DNA from: Calditrichales bacterium
GTDB lineage: Bacteria; Calditrichota; Calditrichia; Calditrichales; J004
Assembly (NCBI GenBank): GCA_965267575.1
Contig: OZ254086.1
Span: 1 to 64,000 of the forward strand
DNA: 64,000 nucleotides
Reading direction: 5' to 3'
Shown here: in pieces, positions 46,791-64,000 of the stretch
Position numbering within the stretch: the stretch's first letter is position 1
Layout of the letters: each line of letters opens with the position of its first letter
The notes under the pieces: model-generated
The model's input: only the letters and a program-made list of their open reading frames with translations
What the model was told of the DNA's origin: nothing
Database searches by the model: none
Program-made: the position numbers and the translations under genes

Positions 46791-46797
46791 TCATTTT

Positions 46798-46848: not shown

Positions 46849-47005
46849 GAAAATTTATCTGCTGATATGAGCGTTGCCAACAACACGGCGGGGAACCGTT
46901 TGCTGAGAGCGAAGGCAGGGGTCTGTCCGGCATTAAAACAGATGACTATTTTTATTTTTGCGGCGTTTTATTATGCCCTATTCATAGCAGAACATTCCGG
47001 TTTAA

Positions 47006-49318
47006 TCAATAGACAAGCTTTTGCTTTAAATACTGGTCAACCTTGATTTTGCCGGAATTTATTATATCGTTTCCTCTGTGCTTGTTGTTTTTTTCACCCC
47101 ACAATAAGGCAACAAGTTCTACCGGGTTATTTTTAAATGTATTGTTGGATAGATCTACGTTGATAATACCGCGGGTCTTTAGCAAAATCTTGCTTTCCTC
47201 TTTTTCTCCGCAGTTTCTAAAAGTGCTGCTATTAACGGTCAAATTTCCACCAATCGTCGATTCATCGTATCCGCCACGATAAAAATTGATCACGTTTTTT
47301 TGTACGTTTTCAAACGTGCAGCCGGCGATGGTGACGAACTCCGCGTTATAGTCGCCCAGGTCGTCGCTCTCAGCTGCCAACACCAACCCGTTAACGCAAT
47401 TCGTGATGGTCGTAGCTTCAAAAGTTAAGGAATCCGCGAAAGAGCCCTTGTAAGATTTCAGCACAAATTGGAAATCCCGGATACTACAATTGCTTAGCGA
47501 AATATTGTAAGCCGCGGACATATTTTTTTCCTTGCTGCCAAAAGCGAACTGCTCCATCTTGCCTTGCAGAGAAACATTTTGCAGAACTAGATTTCCTTTG
47601 GGATGCATTTCAAACAGCGCGGAGTTGGCCGCTCCGGAATAGCTAAGGGTTACTCCAGTTTTGTTTTTGGCCCTGATTGTAATCTGTTTATTAATAACAA
47701 GCGGCTCTTCAATTTGATATGTGCCGGCGGCCAACTCCAGGATATCCCCCGCTTTGGCCTGTTCAAGCATTCCGGAAATTGATTCGGCGGTTACCTTGTG
47801 TATTTGCGGTTTTACCTCAGCCTTATCAACGGAAAACCACTTCGCGCCATATTCCTTTATATTAAAATTTACGATGGCCTGAGAAGCTTCTCCGCTAATT
47901 GCACCAACCCGGTTTGATCCTTTTCTGCTGTTGCCAAAAATGTCAGTTTCGATTTCTTCAAAGCCAAAACCCTGATAGCTGCTTTGCAAAGCATCATCCT
48001 GTCCTGTGGCAGGTACAAAAAGCCAGTCTGAAAGCTTTTCCATTTCCAGGTCAACGCTTTTGATGCCTTCGTATTTTAGCTGATGATCCCGGTTATCTAT
48101 TACGTTGCCTTTAAACTCAATGCCATCCACTTTGTCGTAGGCCTTTAAAGGCAACTCGTCCGCTTCTTCGTTATAAATAAGGTTATTGGCCATCACCACG
48201 CGTGTTGGGCGTGCAGAGCGAATTTCCCGGTCGGGCAGCACCTCTTTTTTGTCCATGTTGGCGCCCACACTTATATGCCATGGTGTTTCACAATCGATCC
48301 ATGAATTGTAAGCGACAACCACATCGGTAACCTGGTTATAGCGATTAAGCGGTGATTTCGGTATGCCATTCATTAAAGCTAATGGCGCTCTGAATTCATC
48401 TGCTTTGAGCTTGTAGAAATAGTTGTTAGTTACCCAGTGCCCCGTATTGATAACCCGGATGCCGCCGACAAAGTCCGACTCATCGCTTCCAATAAAAAAA
48501 TTGCCGTCGACAACACAGTAGTTGCCATGCCGCATCACCAGAGAGCCTTCGCATTCAAAAAAGATGTTGTTTCTGAATTCGTTAAAGTTGGATTTGCTGG
48601 AGATGACTTCGACTTCGCCGTTGCAGCGTTCGAATAAATTATTACTAACATTTATATAAGACGGCGTCATTGACGTATTGCTGGCCCCGATTTGCATCGT
48701 TTCCGCTTTTGGTCCCCCTTTGCGCGGCCGTGGCCCAAAATGGTTGTTTGTTATCTGGTGGTAATTACGAATGTTCTCATTACCGCTTAAATATACGCGG
48801 ATGGTTGGACCCTGGTTGGATTTGCCGGCGATGTAACAATGGTCCAGCTGGTTATGCCTGCCCCAGAATTCTACCCAATGATCGGCGTCGTAGCGGTTAA
48901 GCTGCGTAAAATCTTCAATAACGCAATGGGTAACACGGCAATGGTTAGCTATTCTTTCATCATCGATTCTAAATTCGATAACTGCATCGTCGGGCGTGTA
49001 GCCGTTTTTAAAATAGAGCCCTTCGACAACCAGGTATTCGCCGCCAATTTTTAAGCATGATTCACCTTCGATAGAGACCTTGCCCGGTGTTTCCGCCCGC
49101 AGCTTGATTGGTTTATCTTCTGTACCCTTGCCGTAAAAGAGAATTTTAACATCTTGCCAGACTCCATTGGCGAGAACAATTTCGTCGCCGGCACGCGCTG
49201 TTTGAATGGCGTTTTCTAATTCCTGATGATCATTTACAACAACCGTTTTTGTAAAAGAGAATCCGTTGCTTGCGCTCAATATGATCGCCGCACTTAAAAG
49301 AGATAGAATCTTAAACAT
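47006..49318 (-). CDS. Two-domain PL6 alginate lyase, no sorting domain
   Basis: EVEVISSKS, GSLVMRHGN, MNGIPKSPLNRY, YRGGYDEST; likely start ATG 49318 (MFKILSL). Confidence 0.88.
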   Translation of the reverse strand: MFKILSLLSAAIILSASNGFSFTKTVVVNDHQELENAIQTARAGDEIVLANGVWQDVKILFYGKGTEDKPIKLRAETPGKVSIEGESCLKIGGEYLVVEGLYFKNGYTPDDAVIEFRIDDERIANHCRVTHCVIEDFTQLNRYDADHWVEFWGRHNQLDHCYIAGKSNQGPTIRVYLSGNENIRNYHQITNNHFGPRPRKGGPKAETMQIGASNTSMTPSYINVSNNLFERCNGEVEVISSKSNFNEFRNNIFFECEGSLVMRHGNYCVVDGNFFIGSDESDFVGGIRVINTGHWVTNNYFYKLKADEFRAPLALMNGIPKSPLNRYNQVTDVVVAYNSWIDCETPWHISVGANMDKKEVLPDREIRSARPTRVVMANNLIYNEEADELPLKAYDKVDGIEFKGNVIDNRDHQLKYEGIKSVDLEMEKLSDWLFVPATGQDDALQSSYQGFGFEEIETDIFGNSRKGSNRVGAISGEASQAIVNFNIKEYGAKWFSVDKAEVKPQIHKVTAESISGMLEQAKAGDILELAAGTYQIEEPLVINKQITIRAKNKTGVTLSYSGAANSALFEMHPKGNLVLQNVSLQGKMEQFAFGSKEKNMSAAYNISLSNCSIRDFQFVLKSYKGSFADSLTFEATTITNCVNGLVLAAESDDLGDYNAEFVTIAGCTFENVQKNVINFYRGGYDESTIGGNLTVNSSTFRNCGEKEESKILLKTRGIINVDLSNNTFKNNPVELVALLWGEKNNKHRGNDIINSGKIKVDQYLKQKLVY

Positions 49319-49918
49319 ATGCTGAAAACCTTTTCCTTTATGCATTTCATACCTGGTTCCGTGAAAGGAACGTATCCCGCAAGACTACATAATACGCAAT
49401 AAAAACAAGCAGACCGGTACTTTTGAGACTCATAGTTCCTTCCTCCAAGAAGAATTAGGCAATAAAATATCACAGCGCACGACACCGGGCAACTTAGAGT
49501 TTTTAGATTTTAAGTGCTTCTTGAATAGGCCGTGTCCCACCGTGGGAAAAATGTCATCACTCCTAAAACAGCCTTCATCTGCCGCTGGTCAAGCTGGAGT
49601 TTCTTAACCAGCTTTTCAAACTTCTCACGATATCTGGTAGAAAAGGTCCAGGTTAAATAATCTTCGGAATGGGATACGCCAAATAACGGAAATTTCTGCT
49701 TCAGGAAATCGGGGCAGACCGAGCAACTGGTCACCTTCCCCATCGAGACATTAAAACAGTCCTGTGTAGGCTTCAACGGGTTGGGCTGATTCAGCGCGAG
49801 CCCATGAAAACAGAGAGCGGCCGCTGGATACGCGGCTATAACTATTACCGCATTCTAAAATAAAAAACTTGAGATTGCCCGTCTTAACATGTAAACATCC
49901 TGCAGGAAAGGACGGGCA

Positions 49919-50560
49919 ATGGCCAGAAAAAAATCACAAAAAGGAGATAAAGAGTTGAAATTGCCCGTTTTAAACAATACGATCCCGGAAAGGGACACAT
50001 CAGGCGGTGTTGGCGCAGACGCGCCGCCTTTAACACGGAGCGTTAACAGCATTATGATTGCCAACCGTCTTACGCTGCTGACAGGTCAGTGGAGCATCGT
50101 GCAGAAAGATATCGCCCGGCGCACGGGGCCGCCGTCCACCCTGTCGCTGGTCTTCACCGCGCAGATCAATCTTTCCACAAAGTACATGGCGCGGATTGCC
50201 GATTTCTTCATGGTCAGCCTGGACTGGCTGGTCTGGGGCGATGCGCATTCCAACCGTCTGCTGCCGGCGGGCAGGCTGCTAAACAAATACACATCTATGA
50301 TCGCATTGCGCTATGTGCTGCTGAATGCCAATCGCAAAAAACAATATTACACGATCATCACCACGCTGGCGGCGGACAACATCGCGGCCAAACCGCAAAA
50401 ATCGGATTCCGCTCCAGTCGGCCACATCTGGCACAGCGCCGTTCCCGTGCTCTACATCCCGCAGGATGCCACCCTGATGCAGGCCATCGTCCACCTGGAC
50501 AACCGCTGGGCCCGCTCGCTTTTGAAAGACATACCAAATAAAAAAGTCCAATATAAATAA
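49919..50560 (+). CDS. XRE/Cro-CI-like HTH protein
   Basis: QKDIARRTG...LSTKYMARIADFFMVSLDWLVWG resembles HTH_3; start uncertain (possibly MIANRL). Confidence 0.55.
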   Translation: MARKKSQKGDKELKLPVLNNTIPERDTSGGVGADAPPLTRSVNSIMIANRLTLLTGQWSIVQKDIARRTGPPSTLSLVFTAQINLSTKYMARIADFFMVSLDWLVWGDAHSNRLLPAGRLLNKYTSMIALRYVLLNANRKKQYYTIITTLAADNIAAKPQKSDSAPVGHIWHSAVPVLYIPQDATLMQAIVHLDNRWARSLLKDIPNKKVQYK

Positions 50561-50574
50561 AGGAGAATGACGCT

Positions 50575-50886
50575 ATGGACAGCCAAAATAAAGATATGCT
50601 GCAACTTCTGGAGAAAATCCAGTAAGAACTGGTTCGGATAAGGGAGACGCTCCAGCTTTCTGAAAAGACCGCCTTTTCAATAGACGAAGCCTCTGCCTTT
50701 ATGGGTATTCCCAAAAATACGTTGTATTATTATACCCACCGCCAGGTAATTCCCTATTACAAAACAGGGAAGAGGGTCTTTTTTAAAAAAGAGGATCTGG
50801 TGGCCTTTATTCTCAACGAGAAAAACCGCTACGAAGTTGACGCAAAAATGGCTTCGGAATTAAACAGTTTTTTCTTCAAAAATTGA
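50575..50886 (+). pseudogene. Excisionase-like (HTH_17) gene with in-frame TAA at codon 17
   Basis: AAGGAG SD and ATG 50575: MDSQNKDMLQLLEKIQ*ELVRIRE...FSIDEASAFMGIPKNTLYYYTHRQVIPYYKTGKRVFFKKEDL; stop at 50623-50625. Confidence 0.72.
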
Positions 50887-50950
50887 AAAAATGGAGGCCG
50901 GAGCAAAATCAAAAGGGGCCAAAAAGTGTTAGCAGTTGTTAGCAGAAATT

Positions 50951-50988
50951 AAAAAAGCCCTTGTTTAGATCAATAAAAACAAGGGCTT
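50951..50988 (-). terminator. Terminator hairpin just 3' of the tRNA fragment
   Basis: 12-bp stem AAGCCCTTGTTT/AAACAAGGGCTT with a T-run on the minus strand. Confidence 0.65.
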
Positions 50989-50990
50989 AC

Positions 50991-51015
50991 GCTCCGGCGG
51001 TAGGACTCGAACCTA
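50991..51015 (-). mobile_element. att-site remnant: 3' end of a tRNA gene (probably tRNA-Asn), not a full tRNA
   Basis: Minus strand TAGGTTCGAGTCCTACCGCCGGAGC = T-arm (GGTTCGAGTCC) plus 3' acceptor strand and G discriminator; no D or anticodon arms; lies next to the integrase. Confidence 0.75.
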
Positions 51016-51184
51016 GACCTAGACCTACCAGAAACAACAAAAAAGAACACAAACAGAAAGCAAAATAAACTTAATATTTACAGTATTTTATGGCTTAATC
51101 AATGGATTTGAATTATTTGTTCTTTTTCCTTATTTTTCGATCGAATGTACGAACAGTGTACGAAATATTTTAAAAGGAAACAAT

Positions 51185-52300
51185 ATGGCAGCTCCACGGA
51201 CTATTGAAGAATTGAAAAACGATCTGAAGGCGATTAACAGAGGAAAGTCTATAAAAATTCGCATTGATTGTAAAGCTGACGGCAAAAATTATTTTTTCCT
51301 GGAGTACAATAAGAATGGTAAAAGGAGTCGTGAATATCTCCGCCTTCAATTTTTTGGCGTACCAAGATATAGGCGTAACGATCAGGAGAATTACAAAAAA
51401 GTAAGAGCAATTCAAGAACGAAAGGAAACCGAACTTCATCAAAATAAATATAATTATAAACTACATAATCAAAAACTGGAGCTCTCATATCTTGATTTTT
51501 TTGAAGAGCTTACGCTTAACCGTAAGAGACCGGATAAATCCTGGCGTAATACCTTATCTCACCTTAAAAAATTTCTAAAAGGAAAAGACATCTCTTTTTC
51601 GCATGTAGATGCCAGATTTTGTGAAAGGTTTAAAGACTACCTCTTGGATAACGTCAACAACAATACAGCGCACACATATTTCGGAAAGATCAAAGCATCT
51701 CTGAACAAAGCAATTGAGAGAGATATAATTTCCGCTAATCCAGCGCAGCGCTTTCATATTAGTAAAAGTGAAGTGAAACGCGAATTTTTAACCGAGGAAG
51801 AATTACAAAAACTTGCTAATACCCCCTGCTTTAGCGAACAAACCAAGAGGGCTTTTTTGTTCGCTTGTTTCACCGGTCTTAGGATCTCGGATATAAGACA
51901 GTTGACCTGGGATAATATTGAAGATGGATATTTATCATTCACTCAAATGAAAACAAAGGGCGTTGAACGCCTAAAGCTGCATACGACTGCTCTAGAAATT
52001 CTGGAATTACAAAAAGCAGACACCTCAACAATCGGCAAACTTTTCAACCTTGTACAGGAGCGATATTCAAATAAACACTTAAAGAGCTGGGCTTTAGAAG
52101 CCGGAATAAAAAAGAAAGTCACCTGGCACGTCGCCCGCCATACGTTTGCTACATTAAATATCGGAGCTGGGACTGATCTTTATACCGTCGCCAAACTATT
52201 GGGACATAAAGATATAAAAGTGACGCAGATTTACGCCAAAATCGTCGATGAACAACGCGACAAAGCAATCGACCACTTGCCCTCCATAGATATTAGTTAA
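51185..52300 (+). CDS. Tyrosine recombinase/integrase
   Basis: TGLRISD, HVARHT, LLGH, TQIYA catalytic set; N-terminal arm-binding and SAM-like regions. Confidence 0.95.
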   Translation: MAAPRTIEELKNDLKAINRGKSIKIRIDCKADGKNYFFLEYNKNGKRSREYLRLQFFGVPRYRRNDQENYKKVRAIQERKETELHQNKYNYKLHNQKLELSYLDFFEELTLNRKRPDKSWRNTLSHLKKFLKGKDISFSHVDARFCERFKDYLLDNVNNNTAHTYFGKIKASLNKAIERDIISANPAQRFHISKSEVKREFLTEEELQKLANTPCFSEQTKRAFLFACFTGLRISDIRQLTWDNIEDGYLSFTQMKTKGVERLKLHTTALEILELQKADTSTIGKLFNLVQERYSNKHLKSWALEAGIKKKVTWHVARHTFATLNIGAGTDLYTVAKLLGHKDIKVTQIYAKIVDEQRDKAIDHLPSIDIS

Positions 52301-52408
52301 GGTTATTCCTCCAAGAAGGTTCGTCACTTATTTAAGTTGTATCTTTAACTTGTTCCGTTATTTAATCTTCGTATATTATTCCCCATTCCACCTAAAAGGA
52401 GAATAACG

Positions 52409-53132
52409 ATGACTTTTATATCAACCGGCATTAAGCCACTCGACGAACAACTTGCGGGCGGTTTTGAAAAGTGTGGGTTAGTAGTAATAGGCGCGAGACC
52501 GATGTGGGATAAATGGAAATTTATAATAAATATTATGACGAATATTACTTGCGAACTTCAACAATCTTGTATGTACTTTGTTTTAGAATCAGAGCCAGGA
52601 AGCACAGCGGACAGGTTTTCAAAAACGGTAAAAAAGCTATATGACGATGCTGAAGCAAACGATCATAATAAGAGGTTTGGATAAAATCAATGATATAAGA
52701 AATATGATTCGATTGACGGCTCAGTCTCTAAAGCTTAGGGTGGTTATAGTAGAATCCATAAGCAAGATGTATACACATCATATCGACGATGACGAACAAC
52801 ATGAATTGTTTAGAAGCCTGCACGCACTGGCTAAGGACCTCAGTCTGGTTATCATCTTGTTAGACAATTTAAAAAAGATCGACTTGCTTATTGAACCATC
52901 CGATTTTAAACATGAATTAGCGGAATTCTATGCCAGTCAAATGCTCATAATAAAGCGAGCATCGTTTTACGATGATAATTACGCATATGAATTTAATGGT
53001 GAAGATAAATGTGAAGTAGTATTAGTCAAAAACAGACCGGGTGATATAGGAACGGTATGGCTGAAATATAAAAACGGTATTTTTTCTGATGATGATATTA
53101 TATCGAATAACTTCTCGGTAACAGAGTTTTAA
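52409..53132 (+). pseudogene. Frameshifted, degenerate DnaB-like helicase C-terminal domain
   Basis: ISTGIKPLDEQLAGGF...VIGARPMWDK (decayed Walker A) in 52409-52684, continuing in the +1 frame to EVVLVKNRPGDIGTVWL. Confidence 0.65.
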
Positions 53133-53458
53133 CATACAAGACGGAAATAAGAGCCACAACCCGCTCGTGTCATCACGCATAACAAATGAGCGCTCTTTCT
53201 GGTCTTTAGTTTCTTCAAAATTTGCTGCCATTTTTGGACCAATGTGATCAACAGATTTTAATTTATCTGCAATGTTAGTAGGTCTTCCTGTAAAAGTTTG
53301 TTAAATTACTATTTTGCCTAAGTTCATTCCGGAGCCAAACAAGGCGATTATTATAATCTTTTGGCACAGTTTATTAAGACGCCGGTTTTTAAAAATCTTC
53401 AATACTCTAGGTGAGTAAATGATTCCATAATTATGTTTCATTGGCAACAGTACGAACC

Positions 53459-56311
53459 CTACTCTCCAACCTTCCCCAGCAACACTCGCACCTTCTCCTG
53501 CAATTCCGCCAGCGCATGATGCTCACATAAAGCCAGGCTTTTCTGTGCATAAAAACGGGCAGAGTCCGGTTGGCTTTGCGCATGGTATACGCCGGCAAGA
53601 TGAAAGTAGGAATACGCCAGCACTACCGCGCTGTCGTCCAGCAGGGCGCGGTTGTGGGCGATGCTCTTTTCCAGCCAGCGCTGCGCTTCCACCCAGTCTT
53701 GCAGTGACTTGTGGGCCGAGCCAAGATTGTTGAACACCATACCCTGCTGCCCAAGGTTGTTGGATTTTTCCGCCAAGGGCAATGCCTGCTTAAGATAGAT
53801 GAGCGCGGAATCCGGCTTCTGTTGCTTGATATAGCCGGCACCGATCTGGTTGAGCAGCGCCAGCCGCAAGCTGTCTGCTTTGCCGGTCGTGGCGTCATTT
53901 AAATGCAGCAGGTAGAATTGGGTTTGGTAGTGCAAGCGTTCTGTTTCGCTCAAAGACTGCCACCAAGCCTGCTGCATATTCTCGCGCACATTTTGGGTAT
54001 TCGGGTGGTCTGGCCCTAAAAATTTTGTAAGGATTGTGAGCGCTTCGTTGTATTTTTCCAGCGCCCCGGCATAATCACCTTTGGCTCGCAGCACCTCCCC
54101 GATGTTGTTCAAACGTATCGCCACCTGGGGATGATTTCTGCCGAAATAGAGCTCGTCGATTGTGAGAGCTTCACCGTATTTTTCCAGCGCCCCGGCATAA
54201 TTGCCTTGTGACTCCAGCACGCCGCCGATGTTGTTCAAGTCCGTAGCGACATTCGGATGCGTTCTGCCGAAATAGAGCTCGTCGATTGTGAGAGCTTCAC
54301 CGTATTTTTCCAGCGCCCCGGCATAATTGCCTTGTGACTCCAGCACGCCGCCGATGTTGTTCAAGTCCGTAGCGACATTCGGATGCGTTCTGCCGAAATA
54401 GAGCTCGTCGATTGTGAGAGCTTCACTGGATTTTTCCAGCGCACCCATATAATCGCCTTGTGAAATAAGCACTCCAGCGATGTTGTTCAAGATTTTTGCA
54501 ATATTGGGATGAGTATCTCCAAAAGCATTTCTCAAGATCGTGAGTGCTTCGTTGTATTTTTCCAGCGCCCCGCCATAATCACCTTTGGCCTCAAGCACGC
54601 CGCCGATGTTGTTTAAGTCTGTAGCCACCCCGGGATGATTATGGCCGAAATAGTTCTTATGGATTGCGAGTGCTTCAGTGAGTTTTTCCAACGCCCCAGA
54701 ATAATCGCCTTTAAAGTGAAGCACAACGGCGATGTTGTTCAAGACTGTCGCGACATTAGGATGTGTTCTGCCAAAAGCATTCTCGCAGATTGTAAGCGCC
54801 TCATTGTATTTTTCCAGCGCCCCGCCATAATCACCTTTGGCTTGCAGCACCTCCCCGATGTTGTTCAAGACTGTCCCGGCATTGGGATGCATTCTGCCAA
54901 AAGCTTGCTCGTAGATTGTCAGCGCTTTGTAGTATTTCTCCAGTGCCCCCGCATAATCGCCTTGTGAATGAAGCACGGCGGCGATGTTGTTCAAGTCCGT
55001 AGCGACATTCGGATGCGTTCTGCCGAAATAGAGCTCGTCGGTTGTGAGAGCTTCACTGTATTTTTCCAGCGCACCCATATAATCGCCTTGTGAAATAAGC
55101 ACTTCAGCGATGTTGTTCAAGATTTTTGAAATATTGGGATGAGTTTCTCCAAAAGCATTACTCAAGATTGTGAGTGCTTCGTTGTATTTTTCCAGCGCCC
55201 CGGAATAATCACCTTTTGCTTTCAGCACCTCCCCAATGTTGTTTAAGTCTGTAGCCGCCCTGGGATGACTACGGCCGAAATAGTTCTTATCGATTGTAAG
55301 TGCTTCAGTGAGTTTTTCCAACGCCCCGGAATAATCGCCTTTAAAGTGAAGCACACCGCCGATGTTGTTCAGACGCATCGCTACGTTGGGATGATTCCTG
55401 CCGTGCTGCGTGGTATCGATTGCCAACGCTAGTTGGTATGTGGCCAACGCCTCATCGTACCTCGCGAGCTCACCCAATGCTCGCCCCAGCATGTTCATGT
55501 GCTCGGTGTTCCCAGGGGCGGCGCTGTCGGCTTTGTTAAAATAATAGGCCGCGCTGTGGTAGCGGGCCTCTGAGAAATAGGTCTGACCCAAATTGAACCA
55601 AATCTCCGGAAGGCGCTTTTCTGCTGCCCGGCCTTCGTGAACCGTGCGCCTGTCTTTGCGCTCCGCTTCTAAGAAGCTCTTCCTGGCTTCAGTCAATTTC
55701 GTATCGCGCACCTCGTAGGTCGCCGCGGCATTGGCATCATCCAAAGCAGCCAGGCCGCGCAGGTTCAGGTCATCGCTGCTGCGCAGACTCTCCTTGTACT
55801 GGTCCACGGCGGTGGTCAATTCGGCCTCGCTCAGCCCCAATCGCGCCGCCGCCTTTTCCATTTCCAGTTGACGGGCAAATTCCTTCTCTTTACTTTCAAT
55901 CGAAGCATTCAATCGCTGGCGGAAGACGTATTCCAGCATACGCGCGCTGCGCAACAGGGCGAGCGAGCCTTTTTGCGCCAGCAGAATGGTGTGTGGCTTC
56001 TGGTAGTCGGCGTTGCGCGGCAAGCGCAGGAAGCCATCCGGTGGCTCGAGCAGCACCATTCCTTCCTTTTGCACCTCCACAAACAGGTCGCTGCCCGCCT
56101 TCAGGAAATACTCTTCCGCCATCTCCTTCGCCATGCGGAATTCGAAATAGCCGTCTGTGTTGCTGAGCTTGCTGTCAAGCCCCGGTATGCGCACGCTGGC
56201 ACCTGCCACGGCGTTGGAGTCGGCATCGAGCACAAAGCCGTGAATGCGCACCTGCGCAGCCAGCGGCATAGCGGCGCACAGGCAAGCGATAAGAAAGAAT
56301 TTGGTTTTCAT
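53459..56311 (-). CDS. Secreted TPR protein with eleven 42-aa kinesin-light-chain-type repeats
   Basis: Signal peptide MKTKFFLIACLCAAMPLAAQ; carboxypeptidase-regulatory-like N-domain; G..HP.....LNNI..VL...GDY.GALEK repeats. Confidence 0.88.
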   Translation of the reverse strand: MKTKFFLIACLCAAMPLAAQVRIHGFVLDADSNAVAGASVRIPGLDSKLSNTDGYFEFRMAKEMAEEYFLKAGSDLFVEVQKEGMVLLEPPDGFLRLPRNADYQKPHTILLAQKGSLALLRSARMLEYVFRQRLNASIESKEKEFARQLEMEKAAARLGLSEAELTTAVDQYKESLRSSDDLNLRGLAALDDANAAATYEVRDTKLTEARKSFLEAERKDRRTVHEGRAAEKRLPEIWFNLGQTYFSEARYHSAAYYFNKADSAAPGNTEHMNMLGRALGELARYDEALATYQLALAIDTTQHGRNHPNVAMRLNNIGGVLHFKGDYSGALEKLTEALTIDKNYFGRSHPRAATDLNNIGEVLKAKGDYSGALEKYNEALTILSNAFGETHPNISKILNNIAEVLISQGDYMGALEKYSEALTTDELYFGRTHPNVATDLNNIAAVLHSQGDYAGALEKYYKALTIYEQAFGRMHPNAGTVLNNIGEVLQAKGDYGGALEKYNEALTICENAFGRTHPNVATVLNNIAVVLHFKGDYSGALEKLTEALAIHKNYFGHNHPGVATDLNNIGGVLEAKGDYGGALEKYNEALTILRNAFGDTHPNIAKILNNIAGVLISQGDYMGALEKSSEALTIDELYFGRTHPNVATDLNNIGGVLESQGNYAGALEKYGEALTIDELYFGRTHPNVATDLNNIGGVLESQGNYAGALEKYGEALTIDELYFGRNHPQVAIRLNNIGEVLRAKGDYAGALEKYNEALTILTKFLGPDHPNTQNVRENMQQAWWQSLSETERLHYQTQFYLLHLNDATTGKADSLRLALLNQIGAGYIKQQKPDSALIYLKQALPLAEKSNNLGQQGMVFNNLGSAHKSLQDWVEAQRWLEKSIAHNRALLDDSAVVLAYSYFHLAGVYHAQSQPDSARFYAQKSLALCEHHALAELQEKVRVLLGKVGE
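54136..54426. repeat. Exact 126-bp tandem duplication inside the TPR gene (about 2.3 copies)
   Basis: Identical sequence restarts at 54136, 54262 and 54388. Confidence 0.9.
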
Positions 56312-56385
56312 TGTGATCCCGCCTTTGCTGCCTTTAGTTTGTGCTTTAACATGCCGTTTTGCAAATCGTAAGGTTCAACTACGAC

Positions 56386-57315
56386 CTACTCGAAAGGAAT
56401 CTTATCTCCGGCAGTAAGTACTTTGTATGCACTAAAACCGGCGTGGCCGTCTTTTAACACGCGCACGTAAACCGAGCTTTCATGTTTGGCTTTCACGATG
56501 AAATTGAAATCACCACTCTCCAGGGTGCGGCCAACGCCAAGCGTATCACCACCAACTTTTTCCAGCACGAAAATATCTGCTTCGGCGACACCATCTCCCT
56601 CTGCATACACGACCCTGCCGTAGTAGCGGGCGCTATCCGGAAGCCAGTTTTTGCTGAGTTTTTCCGGCAAATCCAGGATGAAAGTCGCAATCGCCAGGAT
56701 AGCTGTTACAATTGTCAACCACAGCGCCAGCTTTTTTGCCTTGCTTTTTTCCGCGGCAACCGGTGGCTGATTGATAGTGACATTCCCTCCCGCCTGAATG
56801 ACATTGCCGTGTACGTTTTCTATCTTTTGCTGCAGTGCTTTGACATGTTCAATCGCTTTTTCAGGGGACGATGGTTCTTTTAATTTGCCAAGCCTATCCA
56901 TTACGATTGCAGCGTTGTCCGGGTTCAGTGGGGTAGAATCCCTTCCTGTAGCCAATGCAGAGAGTATTTTCGGGATGTCTTCTTCCGTTGTCGTTCCGGG
57001 GATGGCGTTAATGGCATGAAGCGGAGGCGGCAGGGGCGTATCATCCAACACGTACGGGATGACAGGCTTTTTTAAAGCAAGGGCCGTGTTCCATTCAAAT
57101 TCTACATAGTATGACCTGCTGGCATTTTTTGACCAAAAAAGGACGATCCCATCGCTGGCGAGAATGGCTTCACCGATCGCTTTTGCCCAGCTTTGACTGC
57201 CATAAAGACTTTGCTGGTGGCTCCACACGTTGCAGCCACGCGTTTTTAAAGCCGTCTCGATTTCTGCGACTGTCTTCGAATCGTCATGAGCGTAACTTAG
57301 AAAAACATCCGGCAT
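56386..57315 (-). CDS. TIR domain-transmembrane helix-beta-sandwich protein
   Basis: MPDVFLSYAHDD...AIGEAILASDGIVLFWSKNASRSYYVEFEW...VIPYVLD (TIR_2); TM LALWLTIVTAILAIATFIL; start ATG 57315. Confidence 0.85.
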   Translation of the reverse strand: MPDVFLSYAHDDSKTVAEIETALKTRGCNVWSHQQSLYGSQSWAKAIGEAILASDGIVLFWSKNASRSYYVEFEWNTALALKKPVIPYVLDDTPLPPPLHAINAIPGTTTEEDIPKILSALATGRDSTPLNPDNAAIVMDRLGKLKEPSSPEKAIEHVKALQQKIENVHGNVIQAGGNVTINQPPVAAEKSKAKKLALWLTIVTAILAIATFILDLPEKLSKNWLPDSARYYGRVVYAEGDGVAEADIFVLEKVGGDTLGVGRTLESGDFNFIVKAKHESSVYVRVLKDGHAGFSAYKVLTAGDKIPFE

Positions 57316-57776
57316 TGGATCCTCCAGAGCACCGACCTTCAACCGTAGGGTTCGTACTCCACAGATTTTGCTATTCTCCCTCTTATTCAATTTTACAATT
57401 AAGGAGACGTAATTGTAATGATGTAATCAAAATAACACATATTATCCGAATTATCCCGAATCAAATGCACGCAGTCATAGAGCCGCTTCACCGCGTTTTT
57501 AAACTGGTTTTCTGGTAAAATGCAAAGCAGATCCGCGAATCGCAATCAAATGGCTGAGGTACAAGTCATATTCTGCTTCCATTTTGGGACTAAAAAGTGA
57601 AGCTTTTGACTCGCCTATCGCTGCAATAAATTGTAGTTCACATTGAATTTTTTAAGTAATCTCATCTCTGGTTATTTGTATATTAAAACTCCTATTTTTT
57701 AAATCTAGAGTTTTATTTCAATTTTTAAAAAATTATTGTATAATTATAGTAATAGTACATATTCTCTAACTCTAGC

Positions 57777-59597
57777 ATGACTCAGCCTTTCTACTACAAA
57801 AGCGACGTTCAGATAAATAGGTACGAGAGATTAATTGGAAAATCTGCTCGTGACATTACCAGCTTTCTAAAAACAGAATTCAAAAAAAACAATCAACCGA
57901 TAATATCAAATATACTCTGGTATAAAAATAGTTCTAGCTCACTTCACACTATTGGCATACCAAGACCGCCAACAATCCCGCCATTCAGAGTTAATCATGA
58001 ACAATATCAACAGCATCTAACTAAGATTTGTTGGTTTTTAGGCAAATACTTCACAAGTCAATTTGGTCAAAATCAAATAAAAGAAATCTTTACATATTTT
58101 AAAAATCTGACAAAAAGCGGCACTTCTATATTCAGCATTACTGTTCCTGATTTTACAAATTCTATTATTTCAGAATGGGAGACTTGGCTCTCAATTTCAG
58201 GCGAAAAATTTAATTTGAACTATAAAGAGTTTTTACAGCTAACTAAACGAGAGCCTATAGTTGAGCAAGCTTATCAGCTGGCTAATCTATTGTTAGTATT
58301 AATACCTGAAGTACTAGGACGAACTACAAAGAGAAATATATTTCAACAGGTCTATTTGGATATTACAACTCCCAAAAATCCAAATATTATATACAAAAAC
58401 TTTCATAACAGTGTTCATAACGGATATATTGTTGAACTTAAACCAGAAAATCTGCTTTACGAAAAAAGCCCATTTAAAGATTTGGGCAACATTTTGTCTT
58501 CATTATTAACAATGCCTTTATATCCAGATGAACTCCTCACTATAGTCCAACACTTATTGGATCGCAAAAAGCCAAAACTAGACGAAAAATCAGCCGTTTT
58601 TAAAGACATCCATTTTTCAGGTATCATAAAGCCAATTATTTGGAAAGGACAGTTTCAAGGAATAATCTACGCTTTGACGAGAGGAAGTAATTCTAGTTTT
58701 CAAAGTTTTGAGCCAAAAGATCTTACCCTTTTTAATCTTATCATTAACGATTTTGATTTCTCCTCAACTATAGTTGATGCAAACAAAAAAATATTTGCGT
58801 TTAGTTCACTAACATCCAAGGAACAGGATATTCATCCATATTTGCTGCTTTTAAAAAATATTGAGCTTCTAACCAACGCTAGATCATATATTGCTCTTTT
58901 TAATATAAATGACAGTAAAAAGTGTTTTTTCAGAAGTCTTCCAAGTGAAGCCAAAGCCGAAACAGCCATAGATTATCAAAGTTTTGCAAAGCTCATTGAG
59001 CAATCGTTTTTAAAAAGACCAATTTCCGATTTCGCTCTTAAGCCAAACTATGACGATAGGAAGAATTTATTTGTCGAGATAAAAAAACGAGTGCCTGAAA
59101 ATCTTTGGAAAAAAATCAAAGCTAATAATAATATAGTTTTATTAAAGCTATTTTCTCTTAAAGAGAAAAAACTAAGCTATCTAATATTGTTTTACAAAGA
59201 GCTCCCTGAGAAAGTTATTGCCGGTCACATTCCCAATGAATTTTTATATGCCAAATGCGCGGAGCAGATTTCTAATGATGTAGAATTTGGGATAAATTTG
59301 ATATCCGGAATAGGCTACAATTCGGTTAAATATTTTAAGGCGGAACTTTTTTTAGACAGCCTGGAAAAAGCGTGCGAAAAATTAAAAAAAATGGGCAAAA
59401 AAATTAACACGAGTCAGCTTGAAACGGTGTACGAATCTCCTTTATCAACTCGTAAAACAGTGAAACGTCAAGCAATTGAAAAATTATTAAAAAAAGAGTA
59501 CAAAAACGAGATAATTTACCTTGTAAAGAAGAATCCGAACTCCTGGCCTCTAACAAGGTCTTTGACAGCTTATAAGAATATAAAAAGGACAATATAA
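57777..59597 (+). CDS. Uncharacterised cytoplasmic protein with a GAF-like segment and possible C-terminal HTH
   Basis: 606-aa ORF in AT-rich DNA; SGIIKPIIWKGQFQGIIYAL...FEPKDLTLFNLI resembles a GAF C-terminal half; basic helical tail. Confidence 0.6.
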   Translation: MTQPFYYKSDVQINRYERLIGKSARDITSFLKTEFKKNNQPIISNILWYKNSSSSLHTIGIPRPPTIPPFRVNHEQYQQHLTKICWFLGKYFTSQFGQNQIKEIFTYFKNLTKSGTSIFSITVPDFTNSIISEWETWLSISGEKFNLNYKEFLQLTKREPIVEQAYQLANLLLVLIPEVLGRTTKRNIFQQVYLDITTPKNPNIIYKNFHNSVHNGYIVELKPENLLYEKSPFKDLGNILSSLLTMPLYPDELLTIVQHLLDRKKPKLDEKSAVFKDIHFSGIIKPIIWKGQFQGIIYALTRGSNSSFQSFEPKDLTLFNLIINDFDFSSTIVDANKKIFAFSSLTSKEQDIHPYLLLLKNIELLTNARSYIALFNINDSKKCFFRSLPSEAKAETAIDYQSFAKLIEQSFLKRPISDFALKPNYDDRKNLFVEIKKRVPENLWKKIKANNNIVLLKLFSLKEKKLSYLILFYKELPEKVIAGHIPNEFLYAKCAEQISNDVEFGINLISGIGYNSVKYFKAELFLDSLEKACEKLKKMGKKINTSQLETVYESPLSTRKTVKRQAIEKLLKKEYKNEIIYLVKKNPNSWPLTRSLTAYKNIKRTI

Positions 59598-59598
59598 A

Positions 59599-60435
59599 AT
59601 GGATATTTTGGTATCAATTGTAATTTCAGTCATGGCATCTATTTATGCAATGATTTTAGCCGATAAGTATGGATTACACAAAAATAAATATATATTCATT
59701 TCAATCACCGCTGTTATCGTTTTCTTTTTTGCAAATATTATGATTGGGTTTTTGCCGGCCGGTTCTACAAAGCCACAAACAATCGTACCACAAGATTCCA
59801 TACCGCAAGGACCAAAAACTTCAGAATTTTCTTTTAGAACGGAGATGCAATCCAGTCTAAAAGAAAAATTTTCTAAGCTACAATCCAGAGTGAAAAATAT
59901 CCAAACCGATTTCATTACTATCAATTTTACTAGCTTTAAGAGCAAAAATTTTAAGGATCATGAACGAACTAAAATCAGAAAAATTAGAGAAGAGGTACCA
60001 TTGCTAGCAATCGAATACGAGACCATTAATGATGTTGAACTAACCCCTGCATACCAAATATTGAAGTATGATAATTTAGCTTATATAAAAACTATTTTTG
60101 CGGAATTGGAATCTACTATGGATAGCAAAAAAAAGTATATTAGAAAAGCAGCTCTAGATTTAAAAAATGCCTTTAGTATTTTGAAGGATGTTAAGAATTC
60201 ACACGATAGAATTGATAACGATTATATCGTCAGGCTAAAAATATGGATTACCAAAAACGACACAGAAAGCCGATTATACTATTTAGCTTCTTGGCTTAAC
60301 GCATTGAAATATAAAATTTCCGGTAATGAATTGGATTGTGAGAATTGCAAAAAGGACTGGGCAAAAATAGAAGACAAGTATAAACAAGAATTCCCTGCAT
60401 CAGAGCATCCGAGCCTATACCTTTGTATCAAATAA
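59599..60435 (+). CDS. Membrane-anchored helical protein (two N-terminal TM segments)
   Basis: Starts 1 nt after the previous stop; hydrophobic segments at about aa 3-20 and 31-52. Confidence 0.7.
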   Translation: MDILVSIVISVMASIYAMILADKYGLHKNKYIFISITAVIVFFFANIMIGFLPAGSTKPQTIVPQDSIPQGPKTSEFSFRTEMQSSLKEKFSKLQSRVKNIQTDFITINFTSFKSKNFKDHERTKIRKIREEVPLLAIEYETINDVELTPAYQILKYDNLAYIKTIFAELESTMDSKKKYIRKAALDLKNAFSILKDVKNSHDRIDNDYIVRLKIWITKNDTESRLYYLASWLNALKYKISGNELDCENCKKDWAKIEDKYKQEFPASEHPSLYLCIK

Positions 60436-60459
60436 AAGAAAGCCTTTATTGTGATTTTT

Positions 60460-60477
60460 TGCAACATTTATGTTTCA
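60460..60477. promoter_or_regulatory. Palindromic operator-like site upstream of peptide gene 1
   Basis: TGCAACA-TTTA-TGTTTCA; matches the perfect palindrome at 60965. Confidence 0.5.
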
Positions 60478-60517
60478 TATTGCTTATATTTCGTCTAACG
60501 CTTAAGGAGGCAACAAA

Positions 60518-60655
60518 ATGTCACGACGAGTAAAAAATGCAATTGCCATTATATTTATTACGATTTTCTTGGTATTTGGTGTTTTTTTTCTTTACGCACA
60601 ATCCTCCCAAATAAGCATTCCCCCACCTTCTGAAATGCCTTTTGATGGATTATAA
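60518..60655 (+). CDS. Small secreted peptide 1 (45 aa)
   Basis: Not in ORF track. AAGGAGG SD at 60504-60510; MSRRVKNAIAIIFITIFLVFGVFFLYAQSSQISIPPPSEMPFDGL. Confidence 0.8.
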   Translation: MSRRVKNAIAIIFITIFLVFGVFFLYAQSSQISIPPPSEMPFDGL

Positions 60656-60754
60656 TTGTTAATTTCAGATTATTTCTTTCAATTTAAAATTTTAGTGACG
60701 AATAAATAACTTTACGAGCAAATTGTATCAACTTGTCAAATGGGCAAGGCCATA

Positions 60755-60940
60755 ATGAGCAAAAAAAAGTTACTTACGATTTCGTTGGGAATAGTCTTGA
60801 TAATTTTATTAAAGTCTGACTTCTTAAATATCTCAAGTCAAAATTCACTTAGGTTACCAGATTGCTCATCTTTGCCTAACATAGATGAAAAAGATATTAA
60901 AATAGCTTCTCCCAGCCAATTGCCACCTTTTGACCTATAA
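60755..60940 (+). CDS. Small secreted peptide 2 (61 aa; alternative start 60740)
   Basis: MSKKKLLTISLGIVLIILLKSDFLNISSQNSLRLPDCSSLPNIDEKDIKIASPSQLPPFDL. Confidence 0.72.
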   Translation: MSKKKLLTISLGIVLIILLKSDFLNISSQNSLRLPDCSSLPNIDEKDIKIASPSQLPPFDL

Positions 60941-60964
60941 ATAGATTTGCATTTTAATTTTTTT

Positions 60965-60982
60965 TGCAACAAATTTGTTGCA
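60965..60982. promoter_or_regulatory. Perfect 18-bp palindrome upstream of peptide gene 3
   Basis: TGCAACAAATTTGTTGCA. Confidence 0.55.
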
Positions 60983-61072
60983 TCTTAAATAATCAATGAA
61001 ATCAAATTTCTTCTTTACCAACATTTGCGGCCCTTTTCAGGGAAATAAACCTTAGTTAGGTGGGAGAGTTCA

Positions 61073-61234
61073 ATGAACAACATCATTATTCTAGTAGCAA
61101 TGGTAATAGTATTGATGGTCGGATTTAAAGGAGATGAAACGGAACAGGTTGCTCTACCACCATCCTCTGAGTTGCCTACTGTAGATGGAAATTCTTCCCC
61201 ACACTCATCTGACTTGCCAGATGATGGGCTGTAA
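61073..61234 (+). CDS. Small secreted peptide 3 (53 aa)
   Basis: Not in ORF track. GGGAG SD; MNNIIILVAMVIVLMVGFKGDETEQVALPPSSELPTVDGNSSPHSSDLPDDGL. Confidence 0.78.
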   Translation: MNNIIILVAMVIVLMVGFKGDETEQVALPPSSELPTVDGNSSPHSSDLPDDGL

Positions 61235-61320
61235 AACAACTATGGAATCTTAAGAGCTTTTATTTATTAGTTTAAATTAAATTATATATGTGTACATATA
61301 CGATTTAATTATATACGTCG

Positions 61321-61473
61321 CTACAGCACCCTATAATACTCCTTAATCTTCCGGGCCATGAGCTTGCGCCGTAGCTTCAGGAATTCAGCATAGTTTTCGA
61401 CGGCACGGTTTCCCATGCCACTGGGTATACAATTCATCTAAAAGTTTTCAAGCAGCTCGTCACGAGTGTTGAT
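61321..61473 (-). repeat. Displaced copy 1 of the 3' end of the GmrSD-like gene
   Basis: Aligns without gaps to 62761 onward; 22 mismatches in the first 140 nt by manual count; contains an in-frame TAG. Confidence 0.9.
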
Positions 61474-61478
61474 TCTGA

Positions 61479-61601
61479 GCTTCAATCCAATATGATTTGA
61501 TAAAAATGAAAAAACACTCATGCCGCTATACCTGCATTATAGTTCCCCGCAGGGAACTTTTATTTACACCAACGTTTCAATGCAACTATGTTCGATTAGC
61601 G
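61479..61601 (-). CRISPR. Two highly degenerate CRISPR-like repeats (orphan)
   Basis: + strand GCTTCAATCCAATATGATTTGATAAAA (61479) and GTTTCAATGCAACTATGTTCGATTAG (61574); the latter ends ATTGAAAC on the minus strand; gap is longer than a normal spacer. Confidence 0.35.
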
Positions 61602-61742
61602 CCAGTGCGCATTAACGGGGCTAAATCGTTCCAGCTACTATTATAAAAACCAGGGGCTTTGGTTCCACGCGTGGAACTTTCACTCACATTCAAATCTATG
61701 TTTTAAATAAACAAAAAAGTTACATGCATGTAACTTTGTCAT

Positions 61743-61919
61743 TTAACCAAAAATCCCTCTCAAACTCTTCATCCGTATTTCGAGCCACAAAAGCGGTAAC
61801 ACGGAGCCGCCAATAACAACAATCGCGTCTTTTAACTCGCCAAGAATATGGAGTAACTCCACCAACACCGATTTGTTGGCTTCTACTTCGCGGTCTCCGT
61901 AGGCTGATTTGCTGTCCAT
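61743..61919 (-). pseudogene. N-terminal fragment of an AbiEii-like nucleotidyltransferase
   Basis: MDSKSAYGDREVEANKSVLVELLHILGELKDAIVVIGGSV... stops after 58 aa; overlaps the end of the AbiEi-like fragment. Confidence 0.5.
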
Positions 61920-62209
61920 TCCTGCTTGATTATCCTTTCATATAAAAAATTGGCGGCTTCTTCACCGCGTTCTTTGTTGCCTGCAAGGTCTAAGTACAAC
62001 TGTACACCTGAGACGACCGGAATGATATCGTAGTCGCACGATTGATAGAATACGCCTCTCACATAAGGTTTAAGCAATACAACGTTAGAGCCGCTGTCAA
62101 CGGCCTTTAAATCAAGCGCTTGTTTCTGGTCTTCAATATCGACTTCTATGTAGGCATGCATGCGTTTATATCGCGTATAGGATGCCACGCGAAAGTGGCA
62201 CGTGTGCAA
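61883..62209 (-). pseudogene. C-terminal fragment of an AbiEi-like (type IV TA antitoxin) protein
   Basis: NVVLLKPY..GVF...PVVSGVQLYLDL....ERGEEAANFL; N-terminal HTH missing. Confidence 0.55.
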
Positions 62210-62279
62210 CTAAGTCGAAAGAATATTAATCCCAATAGGTTTTTATGAAAGAAAGGTTCTCTGCAGAGAACCTTATAGC

Positions 62280-62394
62280 CCAAAACACTTTATAGTACTC
62301 TTTAAATCCTCCAGGTAATGAGCCTGCGCCGCACTCTATGCGGTGGGATACAAGTTCATCGCAACATTTCAAGCAACTCATCACGTTTAATGAT
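62280..62394 (-). repeat. Displaced, internally deleted copy 2 of the GmrSD-like 3' end
   Basis: tatagtactctttaa...gagcctgcgccg...cggtgggatacaagttcatcgcaa...ttcaagcaactcatcacgttt matches segments of 62761-62914. Confidence 0.7.
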
Positions 62395-62489
62395 TTCAAT
62401 CCCCCTATAATTCGATTAAAAGAGTTCCACGCATGGAACTTTTCTGCGAAATCTTAAATGTTTCAATCTCAGTATGATTCGATATAATA
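62393..62489 (-). CRISPR. Degenerate single-spacer CRISPR-like mini-array (type I-B-like repeats); no cas genes in the window
   Basis: ATTTCAATCCCCCTATAATTCGATTAAAAG (62393-62422), 37-nt spacer, GTTTCAATCTCAGTATGATTCGATATAATA (62460-62489); 21/30 identical; minus-strand ends ATTGAAAT and ATTGAAAC. Confidence 0.5.
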
Positions 62490-62616
62490 CGCCTTAATCT
62501 TCCGGGCCATTGGCTTACGCCGTAGCTCCAGGAATTCATCATAGTCTTCTACTGCGCGCTTTTCCATGCCGGTGGGGATGTAGTAGTTCATCTCAAAGTT
62601 TTCAAGAAGCTCGTCA
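62483..62616 (-). repeat. Displaced copy 3 of the GmrSD-like 3' end
   Basis: tataatacgccttaatcttccgggccat...ttttcaagaagctcgtca aligns to about 62772-62902. Confidence 0.88.
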
Positions 62617-62760
62617 ACCCTTTGTCTGATCGAGATAGCTGCGTGGCCTATGGAAATAAAAAGTTACCTGCGGGTAACTTTAGATATTAGTTGCGAAGAA
62701 AAAGCCAAAAGAGCACATTGCAACGTGTTTCTTATAATCTTCATAGACAAATCGTTTTTA

Positions 62761-64000
62761 CTACAACACCCTATAATACTCTTTAATCTTCCGTGCCATA
62801 AGCTTGCGGCGTAGCTCCAGAAATTCATCGTAGTCTTCTACGGCGCGGTTTTCCATGCCGGTGGGGATGCAGTTCATCGCAAAGTTTTCAAGAAGCTCAT
62901 CGCGTTTCGTGATACCGCCGAATTTCAGACCACCGCCGTTGGTTTGATCGAGAATGGCTGTGAAATACTCTGAAGGAGCCTTATTGCCTATTGAGATATT
63001 GATCTCACTTTGCATTATGACATAATTTGCAATTTGGTTATAGCGGCCGCGTGTCAATCCAAACTGTTTTAAATAGGCTTTGGGGAAAATATGATGTACA
63101 TCGCCCTTGTGCGTTATAAGATCGTGAACCGTTATGTCTCGAGACAAGAAGCCTTTATCATTAAGCTTAACCTGGGCAGCAAGATAGGTATTAAAATAGG
63201 GACTGCTGGCAACGGATGAATTGAATTGCTGGGGCAATCCATGGTCCCAGAAAGCGTCGGAAAGCTCGGCACTTTCCACCTGCTCCAGATAGCTTTCAAA
63301 TCCTTTTTCATTAATCCTTCTAATATCATAATCCATGGATGACTCGGGAGACGCCGAATAGCGTCCTGTCAAGATTGAAATAACAAACCATTTACGCACA
63401 TACTTCTCAATGAGTGCCGCATCGTATTTCTTTTCACGGAGATGCAGGTATACGATATAGGCAAAATTCAAGGTCATTTGCGATCTGATCATTGATGCTT
63501 CGACAAAACCGGCGGAACGCAGGATCATGACAAAACGCTTAAAGTGCGTTTCATTCATGAAGTTAAAGATACCATGTTTCAGACGCTCGAATGATTCTTC
63601 AGCAATACTCTCTTCGTAGCCGCGGGTTTCGAAGTTACGGCCGGAAAGCAATGCAACAAGAACTTCCAATTGGCCGCGCTTAAATTCTGATGTAAAAGCC
63701 ACGCGCAGCATATCCGTATAGGAAGGATCGTACAGATCATCGTTCTCGTTTTTAAGCCACGCCATTTTGGGGAAGTATTCTGTTTTGACAAAATCCTTAT
63801 CCACTTCCACCAATTGAGAGTAAAATTCCGGAGCGATAGCCAAATGACAGAAGTAATCGATGCATTTACGCAATGTACTACCGCCATAGATCTCGTTGGC
63901 GGCAATCTTGGACATGGCAAAGTCCGCCTGACTGAGCACAACACCGGCTGAGTTAATCCGGATGAATATCTCGGTAACTGTTTCTATATCCAGATTAGAA
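62761..64000 (-). CDS. GmrSD-like (DUF262 plus DUF1524/HNH) restriction protein; 5' part lies outside the window
   Basis: Frame is open to the window edge: [19 protein letters not shown] (DUF262 FxRxN motif); DVHHIFPK...NQIANY...[12 protein letters not shown]-like motif. Confidence 0.82.

Follow-up and report, generated by a model that had tools for sequence, protein, structure and literature searches.

We identified a set of four genes of no named family, one encoding a membrane protein and three encoding very small proteins with a common C-terminal tail, in the first 64 kb (hereafter, the window) of the single-contig 4.73-Mb genome of a Calditrichales bacterium (OZ254086.1). The membrane protein gene and the three tiny genes make up a real gene set, and the same set was recovered in a second genome of the phylum. 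In the window they follow the gene of a large soluble protein, and the five open reading frames (ORFs), all on the plus strand within positions 57777–61234, encode 606, 278, 45, 61 (or 66) and 53 amino acids (aa). The tails of the three small proteins (s1, s2 and s3) are tentatively read here as ligands of the co-encoded membrane protein.

The gene of the 606-aa protein (57777–59597) and that of the 278-aa membrane protein (59599–60435) are separated by 1 nucleotide (nt) between the stop codon of the former and the ATG of the latter. The small genes come next: s1 (60518–60655, 45 aa), which starts 921 nt past the stop codon of the 606-aa gene with the 278-aa gene in between, s2 (60755–60940, 61 aa, or 66 aa from the ATG at 60740) and s3 (61073–61234, 53 aa). 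The initial annotation, made from the letters of the window, had described five co-oriented genes in an AT-rich block and had recognised none of their products as a named family. We found all five ORFs where it had placed them, and none of the five proteins matched Pfam, NCBIfam, PHROGs or PADLOC. The composition profile and its comparison with the whole genome delimited a foreign-looking block at 57560–61300 (about 32% GC): the GC content was 32.1% across 57500–61300 versus 49.6% genome-wide, and so extreme an AT-richness is rare, with 0.3% of the 3.8-kb windows of the genome at or below 33% GC.

Each of the three small ORFs begins with one hydrophobic segment, as the initial annotation had stated. 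These segments comprise 18–21 residues after a basic n-region (21 residues in s1), a length at which they could equally be signal anchors instead of cleaved signals. The proteins end in the nonapeptides PSEMPFDGL (s1), PSQLPPFDL (s2) and SSDLPDDGL (s3), which can be written as the common tail P-S-x-[LM]-P-x-D-G-L, and additional internal copies of the motif were found in s3 (SSELPTVDG) and, in degenerate form, in s2 (SSLPNID). Shine-Dalgarno (SD)-like sites had been noted for all three genes: s1 has AAGGAGG 7 nt ahead of its start and s3 has GGTGGGAG, both strong sites, and the s2 start at 60755 is preceded by AAGG alone, a weak site. Such sites are in use in this genome, where GGAG was found upstream of 25% of 2065 long ORFs and of 4% of 5000 random sites. 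The source annotation calls s1 and s3 as genes and leaves s2 uncalled with either start.

When the region 60436–61320 was shuffled 2000 times with its dinucleotide composition preserved, at least three plus-strand ORFs of at least 45 aa were obtained in 131 shuffles, and at least three such ORFs that also carried an N-terminal hydrophobic stretch in none (0 of 2000). The tail motif, a post hoc pattern derived from the three tails themselves, had four matches in the 9.47 million residues of the six-frame translated genome, all of them inside s1–s3, and a looser tail core had 32 matches genome-wide, four of which fell within these approximately 160 residues. With two looser terminal patterns, two further frames were matched (102 aa and 9 aa), which we judged to be chance. 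No other annotated protein of the genome has this ending, and the idea that the tail is a general sorting signal was rejected for that reason; the confinement of the terminal motif to the small ORFs of the module argues for a reader inside the module rather than a housekeeping sorting machine. The conserved tail residues are written with differing codons among s1–s3 (Ser TCT/AGC, Leu TTA/CTA/CTG, Gly GGA/GGG), and thus the similarity is at the protein level and is not that of a recent DNA repeat. The three ORFs lie in one common reading frame, but they were rejected as fragments of one broken gene, as several stops lie between them and a separate start, a hydrophobic head and a terminal motif are present in each. 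As judged from their sequences, s1–s3 are genuine paralogues.

The second locus was recovered when the six-frame translations of 86 genomes from the phylum were searched with HMMER, the 278-aa protein serving as query. In G016, a genome of the same order and of a different family, we found a sole homologue of this protein (E 6.6e-19, 28% identity over residues 84–277). The profile of the membrane-protein family had true matches in 2 out of the 86 genomes, namely this genome and G016; another 18 genomes gave matches at E 0.0015–0.09, mostly across the transmembrane (TM) region, which were not counted as homologues. The G016 homologue comprises 307 aa (L027, 7935–8858, plus strand) and is followed by three ORFs on the same strand of 54, 65 and 56 aa (peptides a, b and c), with 27 nt between the membrane protein gene and that of peptide a. 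Their SD sites are GGAAGGAG, AAGGAAGG and GGAGG, each has an N-terminal hydrophobic segment, and they end in PSPLPPENL (a), PSKVPPEGL (b) and PSKLPPEGL (c). Peptide c contains an additional internal unit, PPPSENPVFEP, just as s3 has an internal copy. All four G016 proteins are called as genes in public assemblies. A search for small motif-bearing ORFs near homologues of the 278-aa protein had been proposed with the initial annotation, and the one homologue that could be retrieved is followed by three of them.

In the alignment of the six small proteins from both loci, the serine at position -8, the proline at -5 and the terminal leucine are invariant. Across the two genomes the alignment scores were 54 for s1 and a, 69 for s2 and b, 49 for s3 and c, and 50 for s3 and b; the top values thus lie on or near the diagonal, which indicates that the number and the order of the small proteins are conserved. 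This comparison suggests that the peptide triplet already existed, in its present order, before the two loci diverged. In G016, too, the block is richer in AT than its flanks (36–41% versus approximately 47% GC), and the module is flanked there by a PGA_cap gene and by Fe-S/DUF362 genes, with no defence genes around. No homologue of the 606-aa protein was found in G016: the 606-aa profile had no match in that genome, and the gene upstream of the membrane protein gene is the PGA_cap gene. The second locus thus has the membrane protein and lacks the 606-aa protein, so that what is conserved is the set of membrane protein and three peptides, to which the 606-aa protein is an add-on. The initial annotation had cast the 606-aa protein as regulator and the TM protein as receptor or partner; of the two, the membrane protein is the conserved partner of the peptides. 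Elsewhere, contig searches for loci encoding relatives came back empty for the genome, metagenome and viral sets, and tblastn against plasmid and phage collections gave no homologue. As a separate observation at the G016 locus, the third peptide gene is preceded by a gap of 444 nt that contains a perfect consensus promoter (TTGACA-N18-TATAAT; L027 9567–9596).

The 278-aa protein has two hydrophobic segments, at residues 1–22 and 29–56, which form a TM hairpin and bear out the two TM segments of the initial annotation. They are followed by a Pro-rich linker and an all-helical domain at residues 74–277. This domain carries the cysteine pair C247/C276, and two cysteines 29 residues apart are invariant between the two homologues; the motifs LTPA..LKY..LA, NAFSI and LYY..W are conserved in the helical domain of both. 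The loop between the TM segments has a net charge of +2 and +4 in the two homologues, and the flank after the second segment +1 or -5; with these charges, the positive-inside rule predicts that the helical domain lies in the periplasm. Basic n-regions were found in five of the six small proteins of both loci, and therefore their tails are predicted to lie in the periplasm, in the same compartment as the helical domain. The AlphaFold2 (AF2) model of the 278-aa protein from its single sequence was all-helical and of low confidence (predicted local distance difference test score, pLDDT, 57.9), and structural matches of the helical domain were generic three-helix bundles at noise level (Z up to 11.4). 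A profile search of the PDB and the ESM Atlas were empty for this protein, and a word-indexed protein search returned only the query, despite the presence of the G016 homologue in that collection.

The 606-aa protein (P0001) has no hydrophobic segment. It comprises an N-terminal helical region, two GAF-like regions at residues ~175–335 and 345–510, and a C-terminal helical domain at ~510–606. An exhaustive phmmer search of 1.84 billion representative proteins with this query recovered two full-length relatives of 36% identity, P0003 (E 4e-98; on a 2715-bp contig) and P0004 (E 1e-95; on an 8613-bp contig), both contigs from Logan/ENA. It also recovered three longer relatives (P0005–P0007, 768–784 aa), which aligned over residues 13–480 and continue with an H-box-like site and then HATPase_c, and are soluble histidine kinases; the His box and HATPase_c are absent from P0001, P0003 and P0004. 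P0008 was discarded as a spurious match to a repeat protein, and a match of the 606-aa profile in related genomes, L009, belongs to a RecQ helicase and was taken as chance. The word-indexed search of 5.8 billion proteins returned the query alone and missed P0003 and P0004.

The initial annotation had called this protein GAF/HTH-like, and the first half of that description is borne out by profile comparison. The PDB profile search gave a GAF chain (5w10_A, E 0.005), and in related genomes the family profile matched two sigma-54 activators, within their GAF domains. When aligned with hhalign against the 21 GAF domains of the genome, the two regions gave P values of 5.9e-5 (residues 278–325) and 0.0067 (361–505) in local mode and of 1.5e-4 and 1.7e-3 in global mode, versus at least 0.3 for the controls (one reversed and six shuffled). 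The ESM Atlas returned GAF clusters at 0.91, which we treat as a lead only. None of the Pfam GAF families (PF01590, PF13185, PF13492) was found in P0001, P0003 or P0004, and P0006 had GAF_2 at E 0.044 and 14.4 bits, below the 28.6 cut-off. The AF2 model from six sequences had a pLDDT of 46.6, and below 50 over residues 177–515; Foldseek with this low-confidence model gave no significant match, and the top weak rows were GAF proteins at E of at least 0.15. Taken at the level of profiles, two tandem GAF-like domains are supported.

The second half of the description, a helix-turn-helix (HTH) or other DNA-binding fold, was not found in the C-terminal 110 residues, where the three short forms resemble one another most (41–45% identity). 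No Pfam HTH was detected in the C-terminal domains of these forms at E up to 10, the best PDB profile match (E 0.22) was not an HTH, and hhalign of the domain against HTH_8, GerE, Sigma70_r4 and TetR_N gave P values of at least 0.078, similar to those of shuffles. The VIA structure search with this domain listed AsiA, sigma and TetR at Z 4.9–6.6, which is noise level. No tetratricopeptide repeat (TPR) family of Pfam was found in the 606-aa protein at E up to 1. The protein thus appears to belong to an unnamed tandem-GAF sensor family, which occurs with a kinase output or with a short C-terminal domain of no recognised fold.

We propose that one membrane protein and three small proteins are conserved together as a mobile envelope module of four genes. 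The membrane protein would be held by its N-terminal TM hairpin, with the large helical, disulfide-capable domain facing the periplasm, and the small proteins would be inserted or exported with the N terminus inside and the C terminus outside. Their Pro-rich tails would present one or two copies of the motif, the last of them exactly C-terminal (P-S-x-[LMV]-P-P/x-[DE]-G/N-L-COOH), and would act as ligands that bind the periplasmic domain of the membrane protein encoded alongside, either tethered or freed by signal-peptidase cleavage, in a self-contained device. The tail is confined to the module, is constant across paralogues and loci, and is predicted to lie in the same compartment as the Cys-pair domain, for which reason it is best read as a docking ligand. 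That the shared tails dock on the periplasmic Cys-pair helical domain in such a ligand-receptor device is the reading we favour, tentatively, as a possible rather than a probable one. In this genome, the module may have arrived with the cytoplasmic tandem-GAF protein, to which it would be translationally coupled; the tandem-GAF sensor half is elsewhere fused to histidine-kinase outputs, and the device is here probably wired to a cytoplasmic signal transducer. Peptide signalling is possible, and control of a mobile element would be conjecture. A fuller version, a diderm system of cell-cell or envelope signalling whose parts are unrelated to those of known systems, is doubtful; in it, three Sec-exported propeptides with a C-terminal PSxLPP[DE]GL signal would be received in the periplasm by a two-pass receptor with a disulfide-bonded helical domain, which would hand over to the cytoplasmic tandem-GAF transducer.

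Several observations weigh against the ligand-receptor reading. The cytoplasmic loop of the membrane protein comprises just 6–20 residues, the protein has no recognisable signalling domain, and the G016 block (four genes, L027 ~7800–10000) has no regulator gene, the histidine kinase/response-regulator pair of that locus being encoded ~2.2 kb upstream, on the other strand; no signalling output is thus apparent. The invariance of the motif across paralogues and loci is unlike diversifying pheromone codes. Two loci are known, in 2 of the 86 genomes, the topology is predicted by the positive-inside rule alone, and both structure models are of low confidence (pLDDT 46.6 and 57.9). As for the small genes, the annotated frames scored better in codon usage than the other two forward frames, but the antisense frames scored similarly, which makes this test a weak one.

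The closest familiar systems are those of the RRNPP(A) type (Rap-Phr, PlcR-PapR, NprR-NprX, AimR-AimP) of Firmicutes, their phages and plasmids, and a similar mechanism would have Sec-exported propeptides whose C-terminal peptide is re-imported, binds the cytoplasmic 606-aa GAF protein and thereby regulates genes. The build of the small proteins resembles that of Phr-type propeptides: they comprise 45–66 aa, with a signal-like N terminus and the conserved part at the extreme C terminus. The sensor-type protein is nearby and shares its GAF-like sensor with histidine kinases, and the five genes are co-oriented within one AT-rich block of mobile, foreign-looking DNA. GAF domains are known for small-molecule rather than peptide ligands, and no DNA-binding fold was detected in the 606-aa protein, both of which count against this mechanism. 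In the available part of PMC10075063, the RRNPP signature is given as a propeptide of 10–100 aa, secretion by Sec (SignalP) or PptAB, a receptor of 250–500 aa, TPRs, and genes that are direct neighbours. The small ORFs (45, 61/66 and 53 aa) fall within the propeptide range, but the locus departs from the signature, as given there, in three of its five points: the large protein has 606 aa instead of 250–500, it is GAF-like without TPRs, and its gene is not directly adjacent to the peptide genes. The internal duplication of the motif in s3 and in peptide c has a counterpart in the duplicated pheromone units within propeptides described in the part of PMC11343458 that was accessible. The conserved partner here is a membrane protein, which is kept at the second locus where the 606-aa protein is missing; the tail is not diversified among the paralogues, so that three peptides carry one common tail and not one specific code; and the host is a diderm of the Fibrobacterota-Chlorobiota-Bacteroidota (FCB) group. 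We therefore regard an RRNPP-like mechanism as very unlikely. Within the limited literature searched, no paper came up that describes a peptide receptor of the GAF type or a module of this kind.

A toxin- or bacteriocin-immunity cassette, with membrane-active or secreted antagonistic peptides and the two-TM protein as their immunity or chaperone protein, would fit a small, AT-rich and patchy cassette (2 of 86 genomes) with several tandem small peptide genes adjoining a membrane protein gene, and one that stands alone without a regulator in G016. The predicted exported parts are Pro-rich (14–25%) and neutral to acidic, with a net charge of -8 to +1, unlike cationic amphipathic bacteriocins, and, unlike in class II bacteriocin or microcin clusters, neither block encodes an exporter, C39 peptidase or modifying enzyme; besides the five ORFs, the block of the window has only short, mostly overlapping ORFs. 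The positional conservation of three distinct peptides is also a better match to subunits or ligands than to redundant toxins, and we hold this alternative to be unlikely. That same conservation of number and order, for three distinct small subunits, is what would be expected of a purely structural hetero-oligomer in the envelope, with one large subunit, three small ones and no signalling role, and the tight spacing in G016 (27 nt from the membrane protein gene to that of peptide a) and the predicted location of the small proteins and the partner domain in one compartment agree with it. There is no hint of what would be assembled, the partner domain matched three-helix bundles at noise level, as mentioned above, and this reading gives no reason why a GAF sensor was recruited in the present genome; such a complex seems distinctly unlikely. 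Anti-phage defence, in which the GAF protein would sense an infection cue (e.g. a nucleotide signal) and the membrane proteins would be abortive-infection effectors, is suggested by the surroundings in this genome, a defence island with a TIR-domain gene, an AbiEi-like fragment, a GmrSD-like gene, a methylase, SNF2 and DEAD+MZB helicases and an integrase. PADLOC-DB 2.0 gave 0 families for the five proteins at E up to 1, no homologue was found in the phage and plasmid collections, the four-gene core of G016 lies outside defence genes, between PGA_cap and Fe-S/DUF362 genes, and the TIR neighbour is host-like in GC and divergently oriented. A defence role is very unlikely.

Small single-pass proteins that modulate membrane sensors, such as MgrB and SafA with PhoQ, offer a likeness to the ligand-receptor reading. 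Proteins of 40–65 aa are there oriented with the N terminus inside and the C terminus outside, as predicted here, and their periplasmic part contacts a larger membrane protein at its periplasmic domain. The partners of MgrB and SafA are histidine kinases with cytoplasmic catalytic domains, whereas the partner here has a TM hairpin and a periplasmic domain alone, and the present small proteins are three paralogues with a common terminal motif, in one cassette with their partner. One-component regulators with GAF domains include the CodY and NifA/FhlA types. The 606-aa family has in common with GAF regulators and histidine kinases the tandem GAF-like sensor region, and P0005–P0007 have the H-box-like site and HATPase_c. 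Unlike GAF regulators (Pfam GAF, GAF_2, GAF_3), the 606-aa protein is below every Pfam GAF threshold, and its N-terminal 175 and C-terminal 110 residues have no match, with no detectable HTH.

Two related repeats are found between the genes of the block. A 27-nt repeat (TTTTTTGCAAC...) lies at 60455–60481, ~40 nt 5' of s1, and its second copy at 60960–60986, ~90 nt 5' of s3. The latter includes an 18-nt perfect palindrome, TGCAACAAATTTGTTGCA, at 60966–60983, to which an imperfect copy at 60460–60477, upstream of s1, is related. These palindromic repeats could be operators, and the copy 5' of s3 could alternatively be a promoter or a weak terminator; a scan for promoters and terminators performed no better than on shuffles. 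No Rfam match was found within 56000–64000 and no tRNA gene in 46000–64000. The stretch is present in four sequencing runs from one sample. Of the contig sets X1, X5, X6 and X8, only X1 covered it; the other three had no placement at all on 46000–64000 and are uninformative on strain variation.

The first 49 kb of the window (1–49 kb) are occupied by a polysaccharide-utilisation locus, which includes a protein with a type IX secretion system (T9SS) tail; together they identify the host as a diderm of the FCB group. From ~50 kb on there is an island that comprises an integrase, a DnaB_C fragment, genes for a 950-aa TPR protein and for a membrane protein with a TIR domain, the AT-rich block, the AbiEi-like fragment and the GmrSD-like gene. 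The tyrosine integrase (51185–52300) and the DnaB_C fragment (52641–53132) lie in a stretch of 33–41% GC (49919–53132), where the island probably begins on its left side. The 950-aa TPR protein is exported, is encoded on the minus strand (53459–57390 region) and contains ten tandem repeats of 126 nt (42 aa) at 54015–55448. Its neighbour on the same strand (56386–57390) comprises 334 aa, starting with a TIR domain and ending in a CarboxypepD_reg-like part, and has one TM segment. Both genes are host-like in GC, and the two proteins may constitute a separate TIR-based membrane system.

On the right, the five-gene block adjoins, at 61321, the outermost of three copies of the 3'-terminal ~150 nt of the GmrSD-like gene (61321–61473, 62472–62624 and 62761–62913); the displaced copy at 61321–61473 (minus strand) marks the right edge of the block. 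Relative to the reference copy, the identities are 82% and 63%; all copies can still be read as the C terminus of the GmrSD-like protein, and they flank successive cassettes, one of which holds the AbiEi-like fragment (61883–62209, minus strand). Short palindromes of the form AGTT(A/C)C-N6-G(T/G)AACT were found between the cassettes (61540–61570, 61655–61680, 61714–61737, 62419–62442 and 62658–62681) and may be repetitive extragenic palindromic (REP)-like elements or terminators. Past the window we found AT-rich genes of no named family and then, in the region 62000–81999 (5720–17699 therein), three consecutive genes, whose products are an Eco57I-type methylase of 1314 aa, an SNF2 helicase of 945 aa and a fusion of a DEAD helicase with MZB/DUF1998 of 1731 aa, a row that may be DISARM-like.

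The word-indexed search missed relatives of 28–36% identity that the exhaustive or genome-wise HMMER searches recovered, and 'ORFan' calls made from that index alone are thus unsafe; as the index is insensitive at this divergence, the module could have a wider distribution. Small exported proteins are poorly annotated, s2 being an example, as it is missing from the source annotation. What is also new is an unnamed tandem-GAF sensor family, which appears to come in versions with a kinase or with a short output domain. Docking of the tails could give rise to a signal or to a tethered regulator, or else to a structural complex or a system of antagonistic peptides. Ribosomally made peptide ligands with dedicated receptors are well documented in Firmicutes and hardly in diderm lineages related to Bacteroidota. 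In the present lineage, a family of three peptides with a sharp terminal motif, linked by conserved synteny to one membrane partner, would constitute a testable ligand-receptor pair.

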